DNA of 32,000 nucleotides from Candidatus Thorarchaeota archaeon (GTDB lineage Archaea > Asgardarchaeota > Heimdallarchaeia > Hodarchaeales > Hodarchaeaceae): assembly GCA_048882505.1 (NCBI GenBank), contig JBHLRO010000001.1:420001-452000 (forward strand), in the 5' to 3' direction. The stretch's first letter is position 1; every line of letters starts with the position of its first letter. A model generated the notes under the pieces. It did no database searches, was not told where the DNA came from, and worked only from the letters and a program-made list of their open reading frames with translations. Below are positions 4,394-17,503 of this stretch, one piece after another. Position numbers and translations under genes: made by a program.

Positions 4394-5401
4394 ATGCGAA
4401 TAGTGGTAATTGGCATTGGAGCTATAGGTGGGCCGCTTGCAGCCCATATTGCAGAAAACGGGGTGGACGCTATTGTTGTTACAAAATATCCCGCTCTGGC
4501 TAAAACAATACAAGATAGGGGACTGAAACTTCAAGAAGAGGGAAAATTTCGATTTGTTCAGATGAAAGCTGTCCCATTGATCACAGATCTCGATGGAACC
4601 TTTGATATCGTCTTTTTTGCCATGAAAGCGTTTGACGTTGTTCCAGCGGCGCAAGCCATACTTCCTTACCTGGATGAAAATAGCGTGGTTGTTACTCTTC
4701 AAAATGGTATCGTTGAAGATGAAGTAGCGGCAATAGTCGGAAGAAACCGAGTGATAGGAGGAGTTGTTTTTTGGGCCTCAACGATGTTAGACTCTGGAGT
4801 AATCGAAAGGCGATCCCGTGGTAAATTTTTTATCGGATTACTTGATGAGAGGGGAAACCAGCAACGCCTAGATGACGCTGCAACTCTTCTAAATTATTGC
4901 TCACCTGTCGAGATAACCGAGAACATTTATGAAATACTATATAGCAAATTGACCTTCAATGCCTGGACAAACGGATTACAAGCGATTTGCGGGCTTCCCT
5001 ACGCTGATTTGTACGCTTCCCCACGGACACGACTGATCGCAATGCGGATTGGTTCTGAGGCTGTGAATGTTGCTGATCGTTTAGGTTATGAACTCGTTAA
5101 ACTTGGAACGATCGATTTGCCCAGATTAATCTTTTCTGATTCAGCAAAACGAATGAAGGAAAACCATGATTTTCTTAAATCTCTGGGGGAATATTTTAGT
5201 GGCTTTAAGTCGTCTAGTCTCCAGACGTTAGAACGAGGGGGTAAATCTGAACTTGATTATTTCAACGGATTCATCGCCCTTAAAGGGAAGGAACTCGGAA
5301 TTAAGACCCCTATTAACACTATGATTAATGAGATTGCCCAGGAAATTGAGAGTGGAACCCGTAAGATAAGTCCAGAGAATCTGCTCGAGCTTCCCATCTA
5401 A
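4394..5401 (+). CDS. panE: 2-dehydropantoate 2-reductase (ketopantoate reductase, PanE/ApbA family)
   Basis: N-terminal Rossmann motif MRIVVIGIGAIGG, MKAFD, LQNG, YSKL..N, SSLQ..E.G.KSELDYFNG. The ATG at 4394 is preferred over the GTG at 4379. Confidence 0.9.
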   Translation: MRIVVIGIGAIGGPLAAHIAENGVDAIVVTKYPALAKTIQDRGLKLQEEGKFRFVQMKAVPLITDLDGTFDIVFFAMKAFDVVPAAQAILPYLDENSVVVTLQNGIVEDEVAAIVGRNRVIGGVVFWASTMLDSGVIERRSRGKFFIGLLDERGNQQRLDDAATLLNYCSPVEITENIYEILYSKLTFNAWTNGLQAICGLPYADLYASPRTRLIAMRIGSEAVNVADRLGYELVKLGTIDLPRLIFSDSAKRMKENHDFLKSLGEYFSGFKSSSLQTLERGGKSELDYFNGFIALKGKELGIKTPINTMINEIAQEIESGTRKISPENLLELPI

Positions 5402-5548
5402 GAATGCGAATCAAATCCCCATAACATTTCCATAAGATGGTTCCGAATATCTATACCTACATAGATAGGATAAAATAAATATTACAGTCACGGGTGTCAA
5501 AATATCAAAAAGGAGCTCCATTTGGGCATTGATAAATAAGCAGCAGTG

Positions 5549-5572
5549 ATTTTCCCAATAAGATGGGAAAAT
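5549..5572 (-). terminator. 3' hairpin of micro-peptide cassette copy 1
   Basis: ATTTTCCCA-6nt-TGGGAAAAT inverted repeat about 36 nt downstream of the stop at 5609. A homologous hairpin follows copy 2. The terminator role is inferred. Confidence 0.45.
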
Positions 5573-5608
5573 ACTACGCTTTACTACGAACTCGAAAAAT
5601 CCTGTTGG

Positions 5609-5752
5609 CTAATTGTTTTCTTCATCCCAATCCTCGTCGTCCCAGTCTTCGTCATCCCAGTCTTCATCGTCCCAATCCTCTTCTTCTGCTTCCTCTTCTT
5701 CTTCATAGACTGGTCTTTTGGAAGTTGGTTTCCTTTTCGGTCCCGATTTCAC
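5609..5752 (-). CDS. 47-aa basic-head/acidic-tail microprotein, MKSGPKRKPTSKRPVYEEEEEAEEE(DWDDE)3DWDEENN
   Basis: GTG start with AGGTGA 5 nt upstream. The repeats vary at synonymous positions, and a paralog lies 708 bp away. Confidence 0.75.
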   Translation of the reverse strand: MKSGPKRKPTSKRPVYEEEEEAEEEDWDDEDWDDEDWDDEDWDEENN

Positions 5753-5808
5753 ATTAATCACCTATTTCAAACTTGAGATCGTGCCAACCTGAATCTGGTT
5801 AGATTAAT

Positions 5809-5874
5809 TCATTTTTTCTTTGTTGTTTTAGCTTGTGGTTTTTTTGCCTTTGATTTCTTTCCTTTTTTGGACAT
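5809..5874 (-). CDS. 21-aa Lys-rich microprotein MSKKGKKSKAKKPQAKTTKKK
   Basis: ATG with AGGTGA 5 nt upstream. A paralog of identical length lies 708 bp away and shares the AKTxKKK end. Confidence 0.7.
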   Translation of the reverse strand: MSKKGKKSKAKKPQAKTTKKK

Positions 5875-5903
5875 GTATCTCACCTAATTGTATGTGTTCA
5901 TTC

Positions 5904-5923
5904 TGGCCATCTTTTTCAGGCCA
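5904..5923. promoter_or_regulatory. Palindrome TGGCC-N10-GGCCA in leader of cassette copy 1
   Basis: Sits 21 nt downstream of the TATA box and 18 nt before the SD. Matched by TGACC-N10-GGTCA in copy 2. Confidence 0.55.
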
Positions 5924-5944
5924 TATGGTGCCTACTTTAGAGCC

Positions 5945-5952
5945 TATTTAAA
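5945..5952 (-). promoter_or_regulatory. Archaeal TATA box (TTTAAATA), cassette copy 1
   Basis: Identical octamer at the equivalent position in both copies (about 71-72 nt from the ATG), while the flanks have diverged. Confidence 0.6.
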
Positions 5953-6287
5953 TGTTACCACCGCTTTACTGCTGGTGCGGATACGTGCGGTTTCAAACCG
6001 ACGAATAAATTCTGATATATATTCTAAATGACATATAAATCCGTTAAATGGAGTTTTAGAAAAAAAGAAAATGGTTCTTATCTGTTCAAATTGGTGCTCA
6101 AAAGTGCGAAAAGCCCTAGAACTTGCGATAAACTACCATGCTGGGCTCTAGGAGTGTTTCTATGTATACAGCTGGTCAGTTTTTTCATGATTTTGCATGA
6201 GTTGAAATAAAAGTTCGAATAAAGAAAGCCTGTTTTGGCTGCGAAAAATTAAAAGAAAATATAAATCAGAATGAATAGGTGGGGTTT

Positions 6288-6314
6288 GATTTTCCCTAGA
6301 TTACAGGGAAAATC
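6288..6314 (-). terminator. 3' hairpin of micro-peptide cassette copy 2
   Basis: Perfect 10-bp inverted repeat GATTTTCCCT-7nt-AGGGAAAATC about 35 nt downstream of the stop at 6350. The terminator role is inferred. Confidence 0.5.
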
Positions 6315-6349
6315 GCTCCTCAACTAAGAAAGATATCAGCTAGGTTAGA

Positions 6350-6460
6350 TTACTCGTCTTCGTCATCCCAATCTTCGTCGTCCCAGTTCTCTTCTTCTTC
6401 TTCTTCTTCTTCATAGACTGGTTTTTTGGGAGATTGGTTTTTCTTTGGTTTTCTGTTCAT
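6350..6460 (-). CDS. 36-aa basic-head/acidic-tail microprotein MNRKPKKNQSPKKPVYEEEEEEEENWDDEDWDDEDE
   Basis: ATG with GGTGA 5 nt upstream. Paralog of 5609..5752, sharing PVY-E(n)-(D/N)WDDE. Confidence 0.75.
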   Translation of the reverse strand: MNRKPKKNQSPKKPVYEEEEEEEENWDDEDWDDEDE

Positions 6461-6516
6461 AAATCTCACCTTTTCTAAATAATTAAGCTTATAGATTTAA
6501 ATTTCGACTAACCTAG

Positions 6517-6582
6517 TTACTTTTTCTTTGCTGTTTTAGCTCGAGGTTTTCTAGTTTTTGGTTTTTTTTCTTTATTTTCCAT
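6517..6582 (-). CDS. 21-aa Lys-rich microprotein MENKEKKPKTRKPRAKTAKKK
   Basis: ATG with AGGTGA 5 nt upstream. Paralog of 5809..5874, with the same 56-nt gap to the downstream acidic peptide gene. Confidence 0.7.
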   Translation of the reverse strand: MENKEKKPKTRKPRAKTAKKK

Positions 6583-6610
6583 TAATTTCACCTAACGATG
6601 TTATTGATTA

Positions 6611-6632
6611 TTGACCGATATTTTTTGGTCAA
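6611..6632. promoter_or_regulatory. Palindrome TTGACC-N10-GGTCAA in leader of cassette copy 2
   Basis: Same position and spacer as copy 1, with a compensatory G-C to A-T change. Confidence 0.55.
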
Positions 6633-6653
6633 GGTAAAACGCTATTAACAGGG

Positions 6654-6661
6654 TATTTAAA
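6654..6661 (-). promoter_or_regulatory. Archaeal TATA box (TTTAAATA), cassette copy 2
   Basis: Positionally conserved between the two cassettes. Confidence 0.6.
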
Positions 6662-6901
6662 CCTGATGGTATTTAACGAATAGTGCATGAAGGTGCTAAG
6701 TTTATTCAGGCATTAAATACCCAATCTGGTAATATTTGTCTATTAATACTGTTAGAGCACTTTTTAGAAAAATCAAGAAGGTTCTAACTAGTTCGAATTC
6801 GTGCGAAGGGGTGCATTCAGTCTTTGGATCGATGCTACGTGTAAAATCCTAGGCATACAGATAGAGAAATCTGCGATGGATTAGGATTAGATAACTTATG
6901 T

Positions 6902-8134
6902 CTAATAGCGATCTAAAAGCAGATTAGGCACGAAATTCCCTACCTTCTGGTCAAATTCGTATAATTGAATCATTGCAACCGAGGACAGTTTCATTCCTAG
7001 AAAAACGATGAACCCTACAGGTGCCCAAATGAATAAATGAATCTTTAAATACGGAATTCTGGACTTTAGTCTAGTGAGATATTTGTAAATTGCCTCAATT
7101 TTCCTTAGTGCATCATCTTGATCTAAAATGCTGTTTTCACGTGGCTCTGGCCTGACTGAAAAGTGAACTGTGAATTTTGTATCCATCAGATCCTTTTGAA
7201 GATACTTTTCAACATACCTGATTATAGGCTCGCTTACACTGATTAGAATGTTGATTTCACTTTCATTTTTGGGTTTTTTGTACCTTGTGGAAAGATTCCA
7301 GTGGACAGAGGCACGTATACTTTCTTCTATATCCTTATATTTCCAATATTGGCCATTTTGTTGAACGTATAGCTCTAAACCTTCAAAATAGTTTACTGAG
7401 TGCCCTAAAATAAATGCAAGAGAAGCATGAGGTTTACACTCTCTCAATAAAAGATTTGTATTGAAATGGGAATTATAAATGGTTTCAATGGTTGTAAGAA
7501 TTTCATCCTCGATGGCTAACCATTGGTCCCTTGTCGGAAGTCCCTCTTTAAAAAGCCCAGAATAATCCAAACAATAATCTACATTATTTCTGTCCTTGGG
7601 AGCAGATTTGCTATATAATGCCAAAGAATAGTCATATGAGGGTTCAAGAGAATGATTCTTTGAAATTAACCGCTCCATTATGCTTATTAGATTCTTGTTG
7701 GAGGAAAAAAGCAGTCTCGTGTCTTTACCCAATTTAATTTTGTATATCAGACTGCTAGAATCATTATTCAAACGGCTTGTGAGCTTCTTCCACACATCGA
7801 TGGTTAGTTCGACGTTGCATTCTTTCAAAATAGCATCAATTTCATCCTTAGTTAATTCATCAAAATCCGGTCTTGCTAAGAACAAAAGAAGTATAAGATT
7901 ATGATAGTGTTTTAATGCTACCCCTGGAGCTTTTATATCAGAGAATGCGTTGAATAGCTCTTCTGGATATTGTTTTAGACGCAGTGGGATCTTCTTGTCA
8001 AGAATCATATTGAAGTTTCTTTCGAAGTGATTCTTGTGGCCTTGAAACGCAAGTATTAATGACGAGTATTCTTTGGTGAGCCTTTTAATCGTTTTGGAAC
8101 TCACATACGAAACCCCTATAACCGATAACAGCAT
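6902..8134 (-). CDS. SAVED-domain protein (SMODS-associated cyclic-oligonucleotide sensor) with uncharacterised N-terminal region
   Basis: The C-terminal part carries two SAVED-like half motifs, KPHASLAFILGH and IHLFIWAPVGFIVFLGMKL...IQLYEF, plus ILISVS. The extreme N-terminus is hydrophobic. Confidence 0.75.
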   Translation of the reverse strand: MLLSVIGVSYVSSKTIKRLTKEYSSLILAFQGHKNHFERNFNMILDKKIPLRLKQYPEELFNAFSDIKAPGVALKHYHNLILLLFLARPDFDELTKDEIDAILKECNVELTIDVWKKLTSRLNNDSSSLIYKIKLGKDTRLLFSSNKNLISIMERLISKNHSLEPSYDYSLALYSKSAPKDRNNVDYCLDYSGLFKEGLPTRDQWLAIEDEILTTIETIYNSHFNTNLLLRECKPHASLAFILGHSVNYFEGLELYVQQNGQYWKYKDIEESIRASVHWNLSTRYKKPKNESEINILISVSEPIIRYVEKYLQKDLMDTKFTVHFSVRPEPRENSILDQDDALRKIEAIYKYLTRLKSRIPYLKIHLFIWAPVGFIVFLGMKLSSVAMIQLYEFDQKVGNFVPNLLLDRY

Positions 8135-9795: not shown

Positions 9796-10698
9796 TCAAT
9801 CAAGTTTTTTCTCTAAACGATAACTTTGTTCCGTTTGAATGAAGCCCCATTCTTTTCCGGATGGTAAACGCGGAGAGTCAGGAAAGAAGGTCGTTTCAAA
9901 TCTCTTTTTACCTCGTTTAAAGGCTCTGTTCTCAAGCTCCATAAAGAGGAGCCGTTCAATCTCCTGGTGATCGCCGCTAACAGCTACGCCGCCGAAATAA
10001 GCCTTGTCATTATTCTCATCATTAGGCAAAAACATTGCATAAAAACCGACCGCTTTTCCATCTTTTTCAGCAACAACCATTGATTCGGGATCGTAATCAC
10101 TTGAATTCATAAACTGCTCATAATCTGAACCTACAAAAGGTGATTTCATTTTAGGATCATTCCGAGAAACCTCTTCTAGTACAGTAAGATCTTCCTTCCT
10201 TAGCTCTCGAAAAGTGTACCCTTCGGGAATTTCGAATTCATTAAATTCCATATCTTTATGATGAACCAGAAATTCGACCATTGTCTGAAAATCTTTGGAT
10301 TTGAAGTAGTTAAGTTGTTCAGGATATCGTGGAGATCCGAATACTCTAAGAATCGAAGTCCCTTCATCCCGGCATTTGGTCTCCATTGCTTCATAAAGTT
10401 GATCTCGGACACTGGATGGTGTACCCTCTGTTAACCACGGATAACCTACACCTCGTAAATTCAGTTCTTTATCCTTCCCAGATAAACCAGCATATCCTAC
10501 CATGCGATCGCCATCATAAGCGTAAAACATACGACTTTGGTCAAAGGTCTCTCTCTGGAATCTTCTAACGGTATCTTCAACCTTTGCAGGTTCAAATTCG
10601 GGTAATCCTGAAGTTGCATCATTGAATATCTTAGTTTGCCCTTCAGCTAATTCTTCTAATCGATCAGGATCAAATCCTTTAATTTCAATCGGTGACAT
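9796..10698 (-). CDS. Tandem GNAT N-acetyltransferase
   Basis: Two GNAT-like repeats (MFYAYDGDRMVGYAGL; MVVAEKDGKAVGFYAM...GGVAVSGDHQ). The ATG at 10698 has a GAGG SD. Confidence 0.75.
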   Translation of the reverse strand: MSPIEIKGFDPDRLEELAEGQTKIFNDATSGLPEFEPAKVEDTVRRFQRETFDQSRMFYAYDGDRMVGYAGLSGKDKELNLRGVGYPWLTEGTPSSVRDQLYEAMETKCRDEGTSILRVFGSPRYPEQLNYFKSKDFQTMVEFLVHHKDMEFNEFEIPEGYTFRELRKEDLTVLEEVSRNDPKMKSPFVGSDYEQFMNSSDYDPESMVVAEKDGKAVGFYAMFLPNDENNDKAYFGGVAVSGDHQEIERLLFMELENRAFKRGKKRFETTFFPDSPRLPSGKEWGFIQTEQSYRLEKKLD

Positions 10699-10795
10699 CG
10701 ACTTTCCTCTTGTTTTTGAAATCCATCTGTAACTAGGATTAAAACAAAAGCGATCCGATTCTGGCAATCATCGCTATCATTCGTGAACCATTAGA

Positions 10796-12076
10796 TTACT
10801 CGGGCTCTTTTTTCATTTTCACAACCATCTGAAAATTCTGAGCCAAAGAATCGTAGAAATCGATTAAAGTTTCAAGGTCATCAGCCATGAGGGATCCCCC
10901 GCGTCCAATTTCCCCAATTCGACGGAGCATAAGTCGATCGGCTTCACCTAAGCCAATCGCGTACAGAACCGCCTCAGGCAATTGAGTTACGCGATCTCGG
11001 ACAACAGGGATAGGATTCACCCCCAAGCCATTTCCTTTGTTGGGATTCCCATCAGTCAGCACAATTATCATTGTCGGATTCTTCTTATTGATCGCCGGAT
11101 TAATTCCGAATTCTTCGATGCTTTGGTATGCTTGGTCTAAGGCTCCTGATAAAAACGTCAATCCAGTACTTTCCTCAGTTTTTTGAACTACGTGGTTAAT
11201 GATACTCTCTATTCCTGCTTTCTTCGTTTCTCCGACACACGAAATTACGGGAGAGTCTCCCAAAACATATTTTTCAACCTCACCAGAGAAAGTAAGAAGC
11301 TGAACCTGCTCTCCCCAGCCCTTGGCGATTTTTAAAGACATAAACAACATTATTGCCATAGCAGCCGCATCAACACGACTTACATTTTTTCCATCCTCAA
11401 ACTTATTCATAAAGGCAATCAGATCTTTAGATTCCTCCAATCCTTTACGTAGTCCTTCCAACGCGCCACTGATGTTTTTAACCTTCATGTCTTTCTTCTG
11501 CATACTTCCAGACACGTCAAGTACAAGGACTGCGTTAAAACTCATTTCTGTATACGGTTGAATGTTGATTTCAATTTCTCTTCCAGTTGGATCCACAATC
11601 CCAATATCGCCTTCTGCAATTGGGGGAGCGGCGCCCATAAACCTAACAGTTATACTCCCAATAGGACAATCCTCCCAAGCTATTTGCAAACCACCAAAAA
11701 CGGGACGATTACGTAGAATATTGGATAATTGTTCAAATTCAGTAGCGATCCAGAGAAGGACCTCCTCTACCTCTTGGCCAGCCAATGGTTCGATGCCTAG
11801 CTGTATAGATTTGATGCCTGCGGCCATTGGAGCTTTTTCTACTTCAACCGAGTCTCCATCGGAAATGTTCGCTGAGCTTAGGACACTGTCATCAACCGCG
11901 ATGGTACCTAATTCAACCTCATCACTCGAAAGAATCTGTGCAGCACCCCAGTCCTCCCATTCTGATGTAAGTTTCACATAATCAAATTCCTCTATTCCAA
12001 CATTTGAAATGTCTTGGGGATGCATGTATGCTCGGCCCTCAATATTACCCACATTAACTACGTTAAGTTTAACCAT
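10796..12076 (-). CDS. CDC48/p97 N-domain-like (double-psi barrel) + von Willebrand factor A fusion protein
   Basis: The N-terminus GRAYMHPQDISNVGIEEFDYVKL...GTIAVDDSVLSSANISDGDSVEVEK resembles CDC48_N. vWA MIDAS motifs VLVLDVSGSM, TFLSGAL and IIVLTDG. GGTGA SD. Confidence 0.75.
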   Translation of the reverse strand: MVKLNVVNVGNIEGRAYMHPQDISNVGIEEFDYVKLTSEWEDWGAAQILSSDEVELGTIAVDDSVLSSANISDGDSVEVEKAPMAAGIKSIQLGIEPLAGQEVEEVLLWIATEFEQLSNILRNRPVFGGLQIAWEDCPIGSITVRFMGAAPPIAEGDIGIVDPTGREIEINIQPYTEMSFNAVLVLDVSGSMQKKDMKVKNISGALEGLRKGLEESKDLIAFMNKFEDGKNVSRVDAAAMAIMLFMSLKIAKGWGEQVQLLTFSGEVEKYVLGDSPVISCVGETKKAGIESIINHVVQKTEESTGLTFLSGALDQAYQSIEEFGINPAINKKNPTMIIVLTDGNPNKGNGLGVNPIPVVRDRVTQLPEAVLYAIGLGEADRLMLRRIGEIGRGGSLMADDLETLIDFYDSLAQNFQMVVKMKKEPE

Positions 12077-12189
12077 TCAAATCACCGCTTTTCAATAGAA
12101 TACTAATTTTATCGCTTTGGTTTTTCGATTTTTAAGATATTAGTTACATTTCCTTGTTATCAGATTTGAAAAGACTCGACTTTGGATCC

Positions 12190-15129
12190 TTATATCCATC
12201 TTTTTCTCTTTGATTTCATCCCATGCACCCCTATTGGTTCTGATATAAGCTCAAAAGGAATCAGGCCGTACTGGTTTCGTATTTCAGAAAAAAAGTACAA
12301 ATAACCACACTTTCTAGGAGTTTTAAACTTAATATTTGGGACTCTGAATTCATCTCCTCTATCAATTCTATTGAGCTTAAAATCAGCGAGTTTCTTTGTT
12401 TGCCCAGTTGGAAAAGAATCGACATAAATGGTTACTGTTGCCGGTGGCATTGAACGAAGGAAATGAAAGACAAAATCGATTTCATAAGAGGTTTTTGGAA
12501 CCACACCTTTGTTTAGGCCATTTTTGGCGGAAGGATCAACGACATAATCCCAATCAACAATAACTTCATCTAGGATAGGTACTCTAATTGTTTTATAGGC
12601 CCTTGCTTTCTTAAACCGACCTATTTTGACGCGAGAAACAACGAAAAACGTCGAATGCTGAAAATTCACCAGTAAGTTTACGCTTGTCGCGAGTTCCAAT
12701 TCTTCATTCGGCTCCAAGGCAAATTTTGAAGAATAAATCGGGAAAGGATCTGATAACGTCTGAGATACAAGCATTATGCTAAACTCCCCCTTCTCAGATC
12801 GTGAAGAATTGTTTACCGCTTTATAGACACACTCTGCGGTACCATAGTTCCCGGTAAGATAGAACTCTTTTGTCTCTACTGGAATTTCATCCTTTCTATT
12901 GATTTTAAATCTTAGTTCTTTTGAAAGGAGGGATTCATTGGTTGAGGTAACAGCTGAAACTGAAATGTCAATATCACCCATTAGATCGCCTAGATTTACA
13001 ACACAAGGAATGTGGACAGATCCACGTTTTTCCAGGCGACCAATGTCAATTAGGGTTTGGAATGACGTCTGAACCACAGATTCTCCCTTTTTTGCCTTGA
13101 AAGAAAAGATCACTGGGTTATTACGGAATTTATACATAACTTCTTTGATGTCTCCGAATCCCAAAGTAAAATAGCCAAAAACTTCATTCCCAGAAATCTG
13201 GGGGGGGAAACTCAGCGAGATGTTTCTCGGCTTGGGAATAAACAATTTGCGTTCTTTTTCCAGATGCTTCTTGAAAAACTCCCTCCTTTTCTTTTCAACA
13301 GTAGAACGTCTTGTACGCATTGCACTAGCAATTCTAGATTCAATTTTTTGATATTTTGGCTCAACAGATATCGAGGGTGAGAGGATTTGAAGATCATCTA
13401 TGTCGTCAAAGGCAGAAAATATTACTTCTTTCTCGGGGATAACCTCTGCTTTCTCTTTATCTATAACAGCAGGAATTGGTGGCTCGGGTGTTATTTCTGG
13501 CACTACTGGAGTGATCTTTGGGGTTCCTAGAGTAGTAGCGATCGGAGAAGGGGGTGAGATAGGTCTGGGTTTTTTTCTTTCTACGGGCTTTTCTGCAGGT
13601 TTTCTTTTCGGAGAACCTTTTTTTCTTGTTCCTTTATCAGGTTTCGTTCTACTTAATTGACGGCTCGTTAAATCATTTTTTAGCGATTTTTGAAGGGCAG
13701 ATCTTGGTTTCGAAACCCCGTCTTTCATTTGACCTTCCTTGGGTTCTAGGCGCGAAAAATCTTCATAAGGAGTTAGAGGATAGGTATTTGCAGGTTTATA
13801 ATACAAATCTGGGAGAAATGAAACTTTTCCTCCTTCCCTTTCATATAGATAAAGAAGGTACTCAGCTATTGTGATTGGAGGAGCGAATTCTTTTGAACCC
13901 AAGGCTGGGATTAACAAGGGCGCAGTATATGCTGGCCCAAAAGCTTGAAGTTCATCCTTTACGTACATTAACAATGAAACGAACGAATGAATAAGTTTCG
14001 ATGCTTTCTTCCCGTTCAGCATATCCCAATTATAATATTGAGCAAACTCCGGATCCAGTTTAGGGTCTCCATTAAACTGAGCTAGCAGCCCAAACTGGAC
14101 CGCCTTGCGACGACAATCGTATAGAACAGGGGAGGAGACAGCTGGTATAATTTGGGATTGCTCTGTCAGACTTACTGCTTTTTTTGCGATAGCTTGAATA
14201 AGTAATACAATTGCCAATCGATTTTCGGGCCATGGTTGAGCGTCAAAGAAACGTAGCTCTATGGTTGAGTAATCTGTAAACGGAAACAGATCGACCATTC
14301 TATCATCTGGTGGAGATTTTTTGACCATCCGAGAAAAATCGTCTCTAGACGCGTTGACATCCAAAACTGGGAGATAGTTTGGAATATTTGGTCCCATTTG
14401 ACCAGAGTTCTTCAGTAATCTATAGGAGTGAGTACACCTTCCTATAATTTGTTTCCGTTCCATTCTACCATTTGAGTTTCGAATTAACACCTTTCCGCCT
14501 ATTGTTTGGTTAAGAAATGGAGACGATGCACTTATCGCAATCATATGAGGAATAAAATTCCTTAACAGATTGTATACTGGAATAAGGAGATGTTTTGGTA
14601 TACCGATATGATGATGTTCTCCGCAAGTAAGTCCTGAGCGAACACGTTTTTCCGTAGGATTCAAGCCAATGGGGAGTAATGCAACATCTGGGGTATTTTT
14701 AAGTCCGTAAAGAGCCGCCGAATATAAAGTTTCAACCCACCACTCCATTTCCTCCAAGTATTGACAAGGAGGAGTCACCAATTCAAGCAACCAAGTTATT
14801 TGGCCAATATTTGGGTCAGGTCCGAAAACGTTGATTGGGATATTCTTCTTATCAACCCTATAGTTTATAAAGACGAATTTTAACCTTCTTTCTCGTTTCA
14901 GCTCCTCCCTCACCTCCACTTTAACTATCCTCTTTGCAATTTCCTTAGGGGTTTTTTTATCCTTGGATATTCTTTTCAGGTATTCAGCAGCTCCCTCAAA
15001 CATCTTCTCCCATGCCTGTATTAGATTCTCCCCCACCAAAACCTCTCCATCAGCTTTTCGAGACACTAGATGATTCTCTATCTCAATTCCATGAGTGAAA
15101 TAGAGTCTAGTTGAGAGAGTTGTTGTCAT
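12190..15129 (-). CDS. Glutamate-cysteine ligase family 2 (GCS2/YbdK-like) carboxylate-amine ligase with Lys/Pro-rich linker and large beta-rich C-terminal extension
   Basis: Motifs FTHGIEIENHLV, LELVTPP, CGEHHHIG, IAISASSPF and TIELRFFDAQ follow GCS2-family order in roughly the first 320 aa. About 500 extra C-terminal residues follow the catalytic region. Confidence 0.8.
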   Translation of the reverse strand: MTTTLSTRLYFTHGIEIENHLVSRKADGEVLVGENLIQAWEKMFEGAAEYLKRISKDKKTPKEIAKRIVKVEVREELKRERRLKFVFINYRVDKKNIPINVFGPDPNIGQITWLLELVTPPCQYLEEMEWWVETLYSAALYGLKNTPDVALLPIGLNPTEKRVRSGLTCGEHHHIGIPKHLLIPVYNLLRNFIPHMIAISASSPFLNQTIGGKVLIRNSNGRMERKQIIGRCTHSYRLLKNSGQMGPNIPNYLPVLDVNASRDDFSRMVKKSPPDDRMVDLFPFTDYSTIELRFFDAQPWPENRLAIVLLIQAIAKKAVSLTEQSQIIPAVSSPVLYDCRRKAVQFGLLAQFNGDPKLDPEFAQYYNWDMLNGKKASKLIHSFVSLLMYVKDELQAFGPAYTAPLLIPALGSKEFAPPITIAEYLLYLYEREGGKVSFLPDLYYKPANTYPLTPYEDFSRLEPKEGQMKDGVSKPRSALQKSLKNDLTSRQLSRTKPDKGTRKKGSPKRKPAEKPVERKKPRPISPPSPIATTLGTPKITPVVPEITPEPPIPAVIDKEKAEVIPEKEVIFSAFDDIDDLQILSPSISVEPKYQKIESRIASAMRTRRSTVEKKRREFFKKHLEKERKLFIPKPRNISLSFPPQISGNEVFGYFTLGFGDIKEVMYKFRNNPVIFSFKAKKGESVVQTSFQTLIDIGRLEKRGSVHIPCVVNLGDLMGDIDISVSAVTSTNESLLSKELRFKINRKDEIPVETKEFYLTGNYGTAECVYKAVNNSSRSEKGEFSIMLVSQTLSDPFPIYSSKFALEPNEELELATSVNLLVNFQHSTFFVVSRVKIGRFKKARAYKTIRVPILDEVIVDWDYVVDPSAKNGLNKGVVPKTSYEIDFVFHFLRSMPPATVTIYVDSFPTGQTKKLADFKLNRIDRGDEFRVPNIKFKTPRKCGYLYFFSEIRNQYGLIPFELISEPIGVHGMKSKRKRWI

Positions 15130-16574
15130 TGTTCATCAATAAAAAATTTGGATAAACTAGCATCAGTAAATGAATCATAACGAGAGCGCCTTCGAGCCTT
15201 GATAACCTCATTTCGACAAATAAAGTCCTGCAATTGTGGGTTCTCAAAATGGCGTGCTTTGTTCGCTTCGAAAGTTGTTGCGTTTTTGATAGCTGAAAAT
15301 ATAACATTTTGCTCATGCCTTCGTTTCAGAATTTTGAACGATTTTTTCATCCCCGACCTTCCAATTGTAACTATTTGTACAAAACCAGGCAATTCATCAG
15401 GAAATCCCATTTCTATTGTGGCATAACAATTATCTTTTGACATGTGTTTGTTCAAAACGGAGTATATGGAAGAAAAATCAGAGGTTAACCTGGGATTCCT
15501 ATCTAAATTTGATTTCGGAGAAGAGATTTTTTTATAGGACGCTGAGGGAATGATTCGCAGTGCATTCCCGCCAAGAATTAGGGCAGCAGCATTCAATAGA
15601 TCAATGGTTGTTTTATTCTCTTGAAAAAGCTGACTGAATTTCTTAGAGAGGAGAAAAGTAATAAAATCGGCAGCCTGGAGTACACTGAAGTAATTATGAT
15701 CACTTCCAAAGACAATCTTGGAATACCAATTTTCTATTTGCATAACATTACGAAAAAAGATTTCAACGTCTTTTCCTCGCATTCCAGATGTCTCCACCAA
15801 CATTTCCTGGTTATTAAGACATTCAAAGACTTCAGGGGAGCTATAATCAAAAGCTGAATGTCCCAATACCACATATATCGGATATTCAACCTCTTTTCGA
15901 GCGATATCAGATACATATGTTATATCTTGAGCTACTTTCTTATTAGGGACGTCGAAAATGGTCGGTATCCCTAGGTCGCCAGCAGCCTTCAGTATTTCTT
16001 TGGTCTCGGCACTCGTTATTTCCTCAATCCAGCCTTGTGACATAGGATGTAGCTTTAAACCCCGCATTCCTTGTCTAATTGATTCTCTTACCTCGTTTTC
16101 GGATCCCTTATCTCTCGGATCTACCCTACAAAATGGAATGAACCGAAAAGAATAATCCATGGAAAAAATTTGGGAACGTACATATCTGTTACTCTTTATA
16201 AATTTCGGCTCAGTAGATTTATGGAATATGTCATTGAATGGAAACGAAACGACATGATCTACCAGCCAGCCGCGTGTCTTTCCCTTTTTGATATCCAATA
16301 GATCCTTGACGAATGGATAAAGAGGCTTTGCACATTCGGTTTCGGGGGGTAACGTTATATAATAGGCGTCTGGGTCCTGCTCTATTCTTTTATGAATCTC
16401 AAACTGGAGTTTGGAATAGAGGGCAAGAATGTCCTTGGGATTGTTAACCCTTTGAGAGGTTCCAGATGTTGTCTGAATTCGCACTTTCCCTATATGAGTG
16501 TGAAAATCTACCAAAGGGAGAAAATTTTTCTTATCGTCTTCATCCAAAACAACTAACACGAATAACACTCTCAT
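15126..16574 (-). CDS. Metal-dependent amidohydrolase (TIM-barrel, Amidohydro_2-like) with C-terminal extension
   Basis: VDFHTHIG, GLKLHP, VLGHSA, VETS, IVFGSDH, GGNALRI. ATGA overlaps at both ends. Confidence 0.85.
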   Translation of the reverse strand: MRVLFVLVVLDEDDKKNFLPLVDFHTHIGKVRIQTTSGTSQRVNNPKDILALYSKLQFEIHKRIEQDPDAYYITLPPETECAKPLYPFVKDLLDIKKGKTRGWLVDHVVSFPFNDIFHKSTEPKFIKSNRYVRSQIFSMDYSFRFIPFCRVDPRDKGSENEVRESIRQGMRGLKLHPMSQGWIEEITSAETKEILKAAGDLGIPTIFDVPNKKVAQDITYVSDIARKEVEYPIYVVLGHSAFDYSSPEVFECLNNQEMLVETSGMRGKDVEIFFRNVMQIENWYSKIVFGSDHNYFSVLQAADFITFLLSKKFSQLFQENKTTIDLLNAAALILGGNALRIIPSASYKKISSPKSNLDRNPRLTSDFSSIYSVLNKHMSKDNCYATIEMGFPDELPGFVQIVTIGRSGMKKSFKILKRRHEQNVIFSAIKNATTFEANKARHFENPQLQDFICRNEVIKARRRSRYDSFTDASLSKFFIDEQ

Positions 16575-17482
16575 GGAAGAGTATAGAGAGTCTTGAAGAA
16601 TTTTTTTGCTTGTTCAACAAGACTGAGCCAAGGATTTTTCTCTATATCAATCCGAGAAGATAAAATCGATGGTAAAACTGATCTCTCAACAGATAAACGA
16701 CGAATAATGAATGCAAGAATTGGTAGGATATAAATCCCTAACAACGATATCCTATAATAACTTAATTTTCCGTAGGTTTCTTCAATAATATAGGGGCTTA
16801 ATTTATTGAGAGAACCTCCCACAGATTTTCCCTCAAAACGTGCAGCTAGCGCTCTCTTCGAGAATCCAGTCCCCAAACTTAAATAATCCCAAATTAAATC
16901 CTCATAGATTTTGAAAGCGAGGCTCTTTCCACTAAATGTCTTTGGGGTTTCAAAAATCAATTGCCTTGTCCGAATTTTCTGAGGATCCCTTCCAGTTAGC
17001 AGATCTGATAACACTTTATTAAGGATCTTTTCGTTAGATATCATTGTATCGACCAAGAATCGAATAGCCGATTCTTCATTGGTTATATTATCTGGCATTG
17101 ACATCTTTTCTTGAAATCTTCCTCGATCCCATTCGACTTGAAGCGGGTCAGGGGTAACAAAAGAGACTAATATGTACAAAAGTGCTAATTCACCAAGAGG
17201 GCTTATCGTGTGAAATGAAACTTTGGTGGAGCTGATTATCTGCTCTCGTTCTCTTTCTAGAATCTCCACATTAACCATCGAAGTGATATATCCCCTGACT
17301 CTGGCGGTCGTAATCCCCTGTGGGCGGCCTAGAAGCGCTGTATAAATTTCCGTGATCCCCTTAATTGTATTCTGGTCGGCACGCTGACCCAGGTAGATCG
17401 CAAGTAGACATAATGCTCGATCATAATGTTCAATAACCTGGAGAGTACCGAATAATCGCTCAAATGGATCTTCCTCTGACAT
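16571..17482 (-). CDS. Hypothetical protein, probably two winged-helix-like domains
   Basis: Two segments ending in wing-like patterns (FHTISPLGELAL; YYRISLLGIYIL). GGAGGTG SD; ATGA-coupled to the amidohydrolase. Confidence 0.55.
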   Translation of the reverse strand: MSEEDPFERLFGTLQVIEHYDRALCLLAIYLGQRADQNTIKGITEIYTALLGRPQGITTARVRGYITSMVNVEILEREREQIISSTKVSFHTISPLGELALLYILVSFVTPDPLQVEWDRGRFQEKMSMPDNITNEESAIRFLVDTMISNEKILNKVLSDLLTGRDPQKIRTRQLIFETPKTFSGKSLAFKIYEDLIWDYLSLGTGFSKRALAARFEGKSVGGSLNKLSPYIIEETYGKLSYYRISLLGIYILPILAFIIRRLSVERSVLPSILSSRIDIEKNPWLSLVEQAKKFFKTLYTLP

Positions 17483-17503
17483 TTATCTCCACCTCCTCTC
17501 GGA

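Follow-up and report, generated by a model that had tools for sequence, protein, structure and literature searches.

In this study, we describe a compact locus of an Asgard archaeon in which a putative nucleotide-sensing transcription regulator is found beside a tandemly duplicated operon encoding two micro-proteins. The locus lies in a 32,000-nt stretch of DNA (hereafter the window; positions 420,001 to 452,000 of contig JBHLRO010000001.1, assembly GCA_048882505.1) from a Candidatus Thorarchaeota archaeon, whose genome is a 4.3-Mb Asgard metagenome-assembled genome (MAG) that is 94.5% complete. All features discussed are on the minus strand and positions are those of the window. The best explanation of the locus is a three-part module, consisting of a gene for a protein that joins a probable winged helix-turn-helix (wHTH) to a SAVED sensor domain, a dedicated promoter with two arrays of direct repeats, and a bicistronic micro-operon. 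With moderate confidence, we propose that the wHTH-SAVED protein acts as a Csa3-like switch responding to a nucleotide signal, and that its dedicated output is this peptide pair. An original prediction, made from the letters of the window, had described the operon as a pair of conserved, selected and translated-looking micro-open reading frames (micro-ORFs), and this part of its interpretation stands; it had missed the adjacent wHTH-SAVED gene and the direct-repeat arrays of the promoter, and these two features, taken together, recast the locus as the output of a switch responding to a nucleotide signal and not as a free-standing housekeeping peptide pair.

The micro-operon is present as two units, A and B, whose coding blocks both repeat with a start-to-start distance of 708 nt according to the repeat-family analysis of the window. 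Re-reading of positions 5300-6900 recovered every element that had been listed for the two units, in the order of a TATA box (TTTAAATA), a palindrome TGRCC-N10-GGYCA, a GGTGA-led Lys-rich ORF, a GGTGA-led acidic ORF, and a ATTTTCCC/GGGAAAAT hairpin. In unit A the TATA box TTTAAATA (6653..6660) is followed by the 5' stem-loop TTGACC-N10-GGTCAA (6611..6632; -6.2 kcal/mol, z -4.2) and by a Lys-rich ORF of 21 codons plus stop (6517..6582, or 6520-6582 without the stop), with GGTGA located 5 nt before its ATG. A 56-nt gap carrying a second GGTGA separates it from a bipolar acidic ORF of 36 codons plus stop (6350..6460, or 6353-6460 without the stop), which runs from a basic head through PVY and a Glu run into two W-acidic repeats, and the unit closes with a 3' stem-loop with the core ATTTTCCC/GGGAAAAT (6281..6321; -15.2 kcal/mol, z -4.2). 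Unit B has the same TATA box TTTAAATA (5945..5952), a 5' stem-loop TGGCC-N10-GGCCA whose stem differs from that of unit A by a compensatory change (5904..5923; -8.0 kcal/mol, z -2.6), a Lys-rich ORF of 21 codons plus stop (5809..5874, or 5812-5874 without the stop), a bipolar ORF of 47 codons plus stop with four DWDDE-type repeats (5609..5752, or 5612-5752 without the stop), and a 3' stem-loop with the same ATTTTCCC/GGGAAAAT core (5540..5579; -18.0 kcal/mol, z -7.5). The bipolar ORF of unit B starts with GTG, 5 nt after its GGTGA, and the homologues have ATG at the identical spacing. The tandem duplication had been correctly recognized, although its extent was understated: alignment of the two units shows that the duplicated segment is the whole unit of ~700 nt, including ~240 nt upstream of the TATA box. 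Since units A and B are only ~56% identical overall, group as sisters in the tree with a support of 0.97, and are both present in the close relative G016, the duplication is evidently an old one of which both copies have been retained intact.

The micro-ORFs are very probably real genes. Variable sites are enriched at the third codon position, with 8/9/13 variable sites per codon position in eight aligned copies of the Lys-rich ORF and 7/7/17 in the head of the acidic ORF (seven aligned copies). Pairwise dN/dS values, a check that had been suggested from the outset, are mostly 0.1-0.5, with the reservation that counts are low and that the pairs are interdependent. All four micro-ORFs of the window have GGTGA at -10, which is where the genome-wide GGTGA peak lies relative to the start codons of long ORFs. 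Insertions and deletions inside the acidic ORF comprise whole codons, largely the 15-nt units of the W-acidic repeat, whereas the spacer between the two ORFs varies freely in length (91-191 nt from the first to the second Shine-Dalgarno site). Lys-rich peptides are polycations of 20-21 residues over all copies (21 in the window) with net charges of +8 to +12 (+9 in unit A and +11 in unit B), while their bipolar partners with basic head and acidic tail have 31-47 residues (36 in unit A and 47 in unit B), net charges of -10 to -19 (-11 and -18, respectively) and one to four Trp residues.

The pair was originally described as unannotated and as belonging to no described family, and both statements are borne out: MAG gene calls skip these ORFs, and nothing was found in Pfam (best E 0.46-2.4, none significant and well under the curated cut-offs) or in NCBIfam. 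A search of 5.8 billion proteins with the acidic profile returned one 64-residue entry only, apparently a read-through of a stop codon, and none of the eight peptide sequences that were looked up is present in a collection of 15 billion proteins. Likewise, nothing relevant was found in the literature on small, Lys-rich and acidic proteins of Asgard archaea. As judged from these searches, the peptide pair is a new and narrowly distributed family without described relatives.

The cassette recurs in other archaeal genomes, as had been anticipated, and 11 further copies of the pair were found in nine other Asgard genomes or MAG contigs. The same architecture is seen in the genomes G016, G007, G011 (two copies) and G019, in a Joint Genome Institute (JGI) metagenome contig (L030), and in two NCBI MAG contigs (L034, and L031 from GCA_054390355.1). 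Matches to the acidic peptide profile are confined to 5 of the 83 genomes of the class and 5 of the 400 of the phylum, namely G000, G016, G007, G011 (two copies) and G019, all of one genus. A further genome, G015, has a divergent and weaker-matching micro-operon, in which two Lys-rich ORFs precede the acidic ORF (L007:1000-1600). The two copies in G011 lie ~8 kb apart on opposite strands (L021, G011:C10:185000-204900), and they are not sisters in the tree, the copy G011a grouping with those of G007 and L030; hence the second copy does not look like a recent duplication but like one that is old or was acquired separately.

The promoter of the micro-operon carries a candidate operator of unusual regularity. 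In unit A, a distal array GCAC-N6-GCAC-N6-GAAC-N6-GAAC (6781..6814) presents four half-sites with a 10-nt period, and unit B has the same array of four half-sites (6074..6107). A proximal box GCAC-N6-GCAC (6683..6696 in unit A, 5975..5988 in unit B) is separated from the distal box by 118 nt in unit A and 119 nt in unit B, and precedes TTAAAT by 36 and 37 nt, respectively. In an alignment of seven units, the distal array consists of three or four G(C/A)AC half-sites with a 10-nt period and the proximal box reads GCAC-N6-GCAC, and both types of element are conserved in all aligned loci. Distal and proximal elements are separated by 118-119 nt in nine loci and, in L031, by 109 nt, approximately one helical turn less, and all 10 loci place TTAAAT 36-37 nt from the proximal box, so that the spacing is fixed although the sequence between the boxes has diverged. 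The TATA box is aligned in all copies (in the copy G011b it reads CTTAAATA), and the first Shine-Dalgarno site follows at 67-71 nt in nine loci (77 nt in L031). The early observation that the spacers of units A and B had diverged while their lengths and functional elements were kept is supported. Base composition predicts ~56 occurrences of GCAC-N6-GCAC in the 4.3-Mb genome; 16 are present, of which four lie in this locus. When the box is combined with the TATA element (box-N20-24-TTAAAT), the pattern matches only the eight micro-operon promoters in five genomes totalling ~24 Mb. We also considered autoregulation of the SAVED gene through the same boxes and rejected it: no G(C/A)AC-N6-G(C/A)AC is found within 400 nt upstream of this gene in seven of eight loci.

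The regulator gene (6902..8134, 410 codons) has a Pfam SAVED match (PF18145) of 76 bits against a cut-off of 26.2 (E 4.1e-21), and its product also matches the PADLOC models of SAVED effectors. It is the only SAVED gene of the source genome. A structural model based on a 4-sequence alignment was unusable (predicted local distance difference test, pLDDT, 39) and was replaced by an AlphaFold2 model from a 103-sequence alignment with a pLDDT of 90.7. Residues ~165-410 of this model superpose on Cap4 (7yib) with a Z score of 24.6 and a root-mean-square deviation of 3.0 over 237 residues, and the same part matches CalpL, Cap5 and TIR-SAVED proteins with Z scores of 17.8-21.6 (9eyi Z 21.6, 7qda Z 19.8). 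Model and structural matches together identify the double CARF-like fold of SAVED. The near-invariant residues of the family, W205, G244, Q259, W264, H366, Y392 and E393, are all present.

The N-terminal part of the protein (residues ~54-159) is a probable winged helix. In the model, DSSP assigns helices at residues 74-86, 96-105 and 112-119 and strands at 130-135 and 138-143, and residues 74-143 thereby form a helix-helix-helix-beta-hairpin. This region matches winged-helix domains of the origin recognition complex (ORC; Z 6.3, 5.9, 5.5), chain E of the Wadjet JetABC entry 9qe0 (Z 6.1) and the ArsR-type repressor PagR (Z 5.8 over 86 of 86 residues); since these Z values are middling, we regard the winged helix as probable, short of proof. 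In sequences down to 38% identity, the putative recognition helix WKK(L/I)T does not vary. Foldseek searches with the model (PDB, AlphaFold database clusters, Atlas) returned SAVED-dominated matches only, a feature search of a protein atlas with residues 1-160 gave nothing usable, and phmmer against the PDB yielded only matches at E ~0.7, two chains deposited as cyclic nucleotide-binding proteins. Viral contigs yielded no relative of the SAVED gene. As for the start of the gene, the homologues begin 10 codons downstream of the annotated ATG (interval 8105-8134), at a point where their initial Met-Ser-Ser-Lys is aligned with a GTG in codon 11; translation may therefore begin at this GTG.

The regulator and the operon are linked by position and by distribution. 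In the genomes G007, G011 and G019 the SAVED gene (67-71% identity) lies directly upstream of the micro-operon and is the only neighbour of the operon that the window shares with these three genomes, and the same arrangement is kept in L030 (71% identity), L034 (59%) and L031 (40%). Among the 400 Asgard genomes, the wHTH-SAVED protein and the acidic peptide are found in the same five, and in a sixth genome, G017, the SAVED gene is cut by the end of the contig. In L031 (GCA_054390355.1; 1454-1684, 5761-6402) the module lies between two further genes, one for a histone-fold protein on the upstream side of SAVED and one for a HEPN RiboL-PSP protein at a distance of a few genes downstream. In the window itself, a co-oriented cluster that includes a GNAT gene and a CDC48_N-vWA gene is found a few kb away (9796-18124); it is not conserved beside the module in the other genomes compared.

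The transcript of the micro-operon appears to be bracketed by two RNA hairpins. The TATA box of archaeal promoters is centred near -26, and from this geometry transcription would be expected to start at or next to the 5' palindrome. The palindrome folds as a stem-loop in 10 of 10 loci (z -2.6 to -5.4) and its stem covaries (TTGACC/GGTCAA, TGGCC/GGCCA, TTGGCT/AGCCAA, GATTGTC/GACAATC, with one G-U pair in L030), and this covariation favours an RNA hairpin rather than a sequence-specific operator. The 3' hairpin folds in eight of eight loci (z -4.2 to -7.5). All keep the core TTTTCCC/GGGAAAA, and covariation is seen in the outer stem (such as GGTGA/TCACC versus GGAGG/CCTCC); L031 has a T9 run in place of this hairpin. 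Such bracketing suggests a stabilized short mRNA. A search with Rfam over positions 5300-7000 gave nothing above noise. In several species (L004:1654-1692, L005:1411-1467, L030:4844-4893) the outer 3' stem pairs a Shine-Dalgarno-like AGGTGA with ATCACCTC, an arm that presumably resembles the 3' end of archaeal 16S rRNA, and it could compete with the two real Shine-Dalgarno sites of the same mRNA; units A and B both lack the AGGTGA/ATCACCTC outer stem.

Based on these observations, the following scenario can be drawn. Solved SAVED effectors oligomerize head-to-tail on ligand binding, and the titles of PDB entries among our structural matches include CalpL, SAVED-CHAT and 3TM-SAVED filaments. 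Archaeal activators usually bind at sites that end ~20 nt upstream of the TATA box. It is from this mode of oligomerization and from the activator-type position of the sites that we infer a ligand-driven, cooperative occupation of the repeats: on binding of a nucleotide second messenger the wHTH-SAVED protein would oligomerize and occupy the direct repeats, occupation of the proximal box, located ~20 nt upstream of the TATA box as in activator sites, would turn the micro-operon on, and the two hairpins would stabilize its short mRNA. The peptides would be the output, most likely as an electrostatic pair: the polycation would bind nucleic acid, and its acidic partner would act as a buffer or chaperone for it. 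The opposite charges of the two peptides fit such a pairing. A complex prediction for the wHTH-SAVED protein with the acidic peptide had a score of 0.02 and gave no answer, speaking neither for nor against binding. A more specific form of the scenario, as an immune or stress output in which SAVED polymerizes on the repeats and the stabilized mini-mRNA yields a polycation and a Trp-studded polyanion that coacervate or compact nucleic acids, is in our estimate rather unlikely.

Several points weigh against the proposed switch. The fold matches of the winged helix are middling, at Z about 6, and the placement of a 45-kDa protomer on half-sites spaced by 10 bp is sterically demanding. No source of the signal was found: no match to CD-NTase (PF18144), Cas10 (TIGR02577, TIGR02578, PF22335) or DAC cyclase (PF02457) was found in the 94.5% complete genome, nor was a cyclase found among the nine ORFs scanned in the first 12 kb of the window. 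The carrier genomes are kin, so that counts of co-occurrence overstate their independence. In G015 (70% complete) no wHTH-SAVED gene was detected although the divergent operon is present, and neither unit B nor G011a has an adjacent SAVED gene, so that regulation of these copies would have to act in trans. The last two observations, together with the restriction of all carriers from the genome search to one genus, are what one would expect if the peptides formed an independent small-protein system of disordered chromatin-, RNA- or ribosome-associated peptides, with the SAVED gene a neighbour by descent and the boxes read by another factor. We consider this improbable, given that SAVED is the only neighbour shared with G007, G011 and G019, that the pairing persists down to 40% SAVED identity, and that the promoter pattern is unique to these operons; in addition, the identical patchy distribution of the two partners speaks against a housekeeping role.

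The same patchy, accessory distribution would also suit a toxin-antidote or abortive-infection system, in which the Lys-rich peptide would be toxic through binding of nucleic acid or membranes, the acidic peptide would neutralize it, and induction by SAVED would tip the balance. Opposite net charges of comparable size speak for such a system, as does the fact that SAVED proteins are typically defence sensors, and a distant relative (L035) has an NYN RNase in the same position. We nevertheless have little belief in it, given that the peptides match no described toxin or antitoxin family (Pfam and NCBIfam; PADLOC was run on the SAVED proteins only), that the window shows no obvious defence island, that no cyclase was found in the genome, and that a long retention of two toxin copies would be unusual, though possible. 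Very doubtful is the idea that the operon regulates the switch, with the acidic Trp-repeat peptide as a DNA mimic acting back on the winged helix or titrating another DNA-binding protein: known DNA-mimic proteins are similarly acidic, and the peptide does combine a very high negative charge with spaced aromatic residues, but the co-encoded Lys-rich peptide and the basic head would be left unexplained. Least probable of all, in our opinion, is that the ORFs are untranslated and that the unit acts as a structured non-coding RNA or solely as regulatory DNA. Its low-complexity, A-rich sequence and the conserved hairpins at both ends could be read in this way, yet third-position enrichment and dN/dS below 1, the optimal Shine-Dalgarno spacing at all ORFs, the whole-codon indels of the acidic ORF as opposed to the freely varying spacer, and the lack of an Rfam family match all argue for coding sequence.

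More distant relatives of the regulator are found with other cargo. In L032 (1850-2260; GCA_048886485.1), where SAVED identity is 39%, GAAC/GCAC repeats with a 10-nt period are followed by a TATA box, a 40-residue basic ORF and a hairpin; this basic ORF is single, matches no family and is not accompanied by an acidic ORF. In L035 (1800-2700; JGI metagenome 3300033153), where identity is 24%, an AGTTCG...CGAACT palindrome and three GTTC repeats with an 11-nt period precede a TATA box and then a gene for an NYN/Zc3h12a-type RNase. The N-terminal part of the L035 protein is collinear with that of the wHTH-SAVED protein, but the match is weak (hhalign E 1e-3, probability 22%), and the locus may follow the same switch logic with an enzymatic effector. 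These loci would fit, on thin evidence, a sensor-regulator that controls whichever effector is encoded after it.

CARF and SAVED signalling is known to drive nucleases, TIR domains, NADases, proteases and pores, and to act on transcription through Csa3 and Calp. In our literature search the terms HTH-SAVED and SAVED-wHTH were not found; CARF-HTH regulators have been described, and no SAVED-wHTH fusion was found. A direct fusion of SAVED to a DNA-binding domain, served by a dedicated operator of precise spacing, would, if true, be a compact and testable new switch. The module is short (~1.2 kb for the regulator, ~250 nt for operator and promoter and ~400 nt for the operon), and hence easy to reconstitute.

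By analogy, the closest functional counterpart is Csa3, followed by the Calp system. Csa3 is the CARF-wHTH transcription factor of CRISPR loci and binds cyclic tetra-adenylate (PMC8699464, PMC8844856). Like Csa3, the protein described here joins a Rossmann-like sensor of cyclic oligonucleotides to a winged helix, and is predicted to couple the messenger to transcription of a neighbouring gene. However, the sensor is SAVED, a fused double CARF-like unit of which CARF proteins match one half (Z 5.7-7.0), and the order of the domains is reversed, with the winged helix at the N-terminus. Moreover, phased direct repeats form the candidate sites, the presumed target is an operon for micro-proteins and not cas or repair genes, and neither a Cas10 gene in the genome nor a link to CRISPR was found. 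On account of its SAVED sensor, its reversed domain order and the lack of a detected CRISPR link, the wHTH-SAVED protein is not a member of the Csa3 family. In the CalpL-CalpT-CalpS system, a SAVED-Lon protease releases a sigma factor and thereby elicits a transcriptional response (PMC11417357, PMC12751052). The likeness, which extends to the fold matches 9eyi and 7qda mentioned above, is that a SAVED sensor would turn a cyclic-oligoadenylate signal into transcription; in contrast to Calp, no protease, anti-sigma or sigma factor is involved, and the DNA-binding domain would be fused directly to the sensor. In structure as in profile, residues ~165-410 are matched best by the nuclease-SAVED effectors Cap4 and Cap5 of the cyclic-oligonucleotide-based antiphage signalling system (CBASS). 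Their N-terminal nuclease is replaced in our protein by a helical domain and the probable winged helix; a CD-NTase was not detected in the genome, and the gene lies outside any CBASS operon.

The peptides resemble certain eukaryotic proteins. The pairs of histone H1 with prothymosin-alpha and those of nucleoplasmin type combine a Lys/Pro-rich polycation with a Glu/Asp-rich disordered polyanion, and the micro-operon likewise encodes an oppositely charged pair of comparable charge whose interaction is predicted. Unlike these proteins, the peptides are 20-47 residues long, the acidic partner has a basic head and regular Trp residues, and there is no sequence homology. Eukaryotic W-acidic docking motifs, as in ligands of the kinesin light chain and the acidic region of Arp2/3 activators, also place Trp within Asp/Glu runs, as happens one to four times in the acidic peptide; this is a short low-complexity resemblance only and not evidence of relatedness. 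Being overlooked by gene callers and belonging to no described family, the micro-proteins illustrate the hidden small-protein biology of Asgard genomes. Should they prove to work together as polycation and polyanion, they would provide a minimal example from nature of disordered, charge-driven complexes, which are familiar above all from eukaryotic chromatin. If, furthermore, the peptides coacervated or compacted nucleic acids, the module would represent a transcription-coupled polyelectrolyte effector, unlike the known CARF/SAVED effectors, in the archaeal lineage that is closest to eukaryotes.

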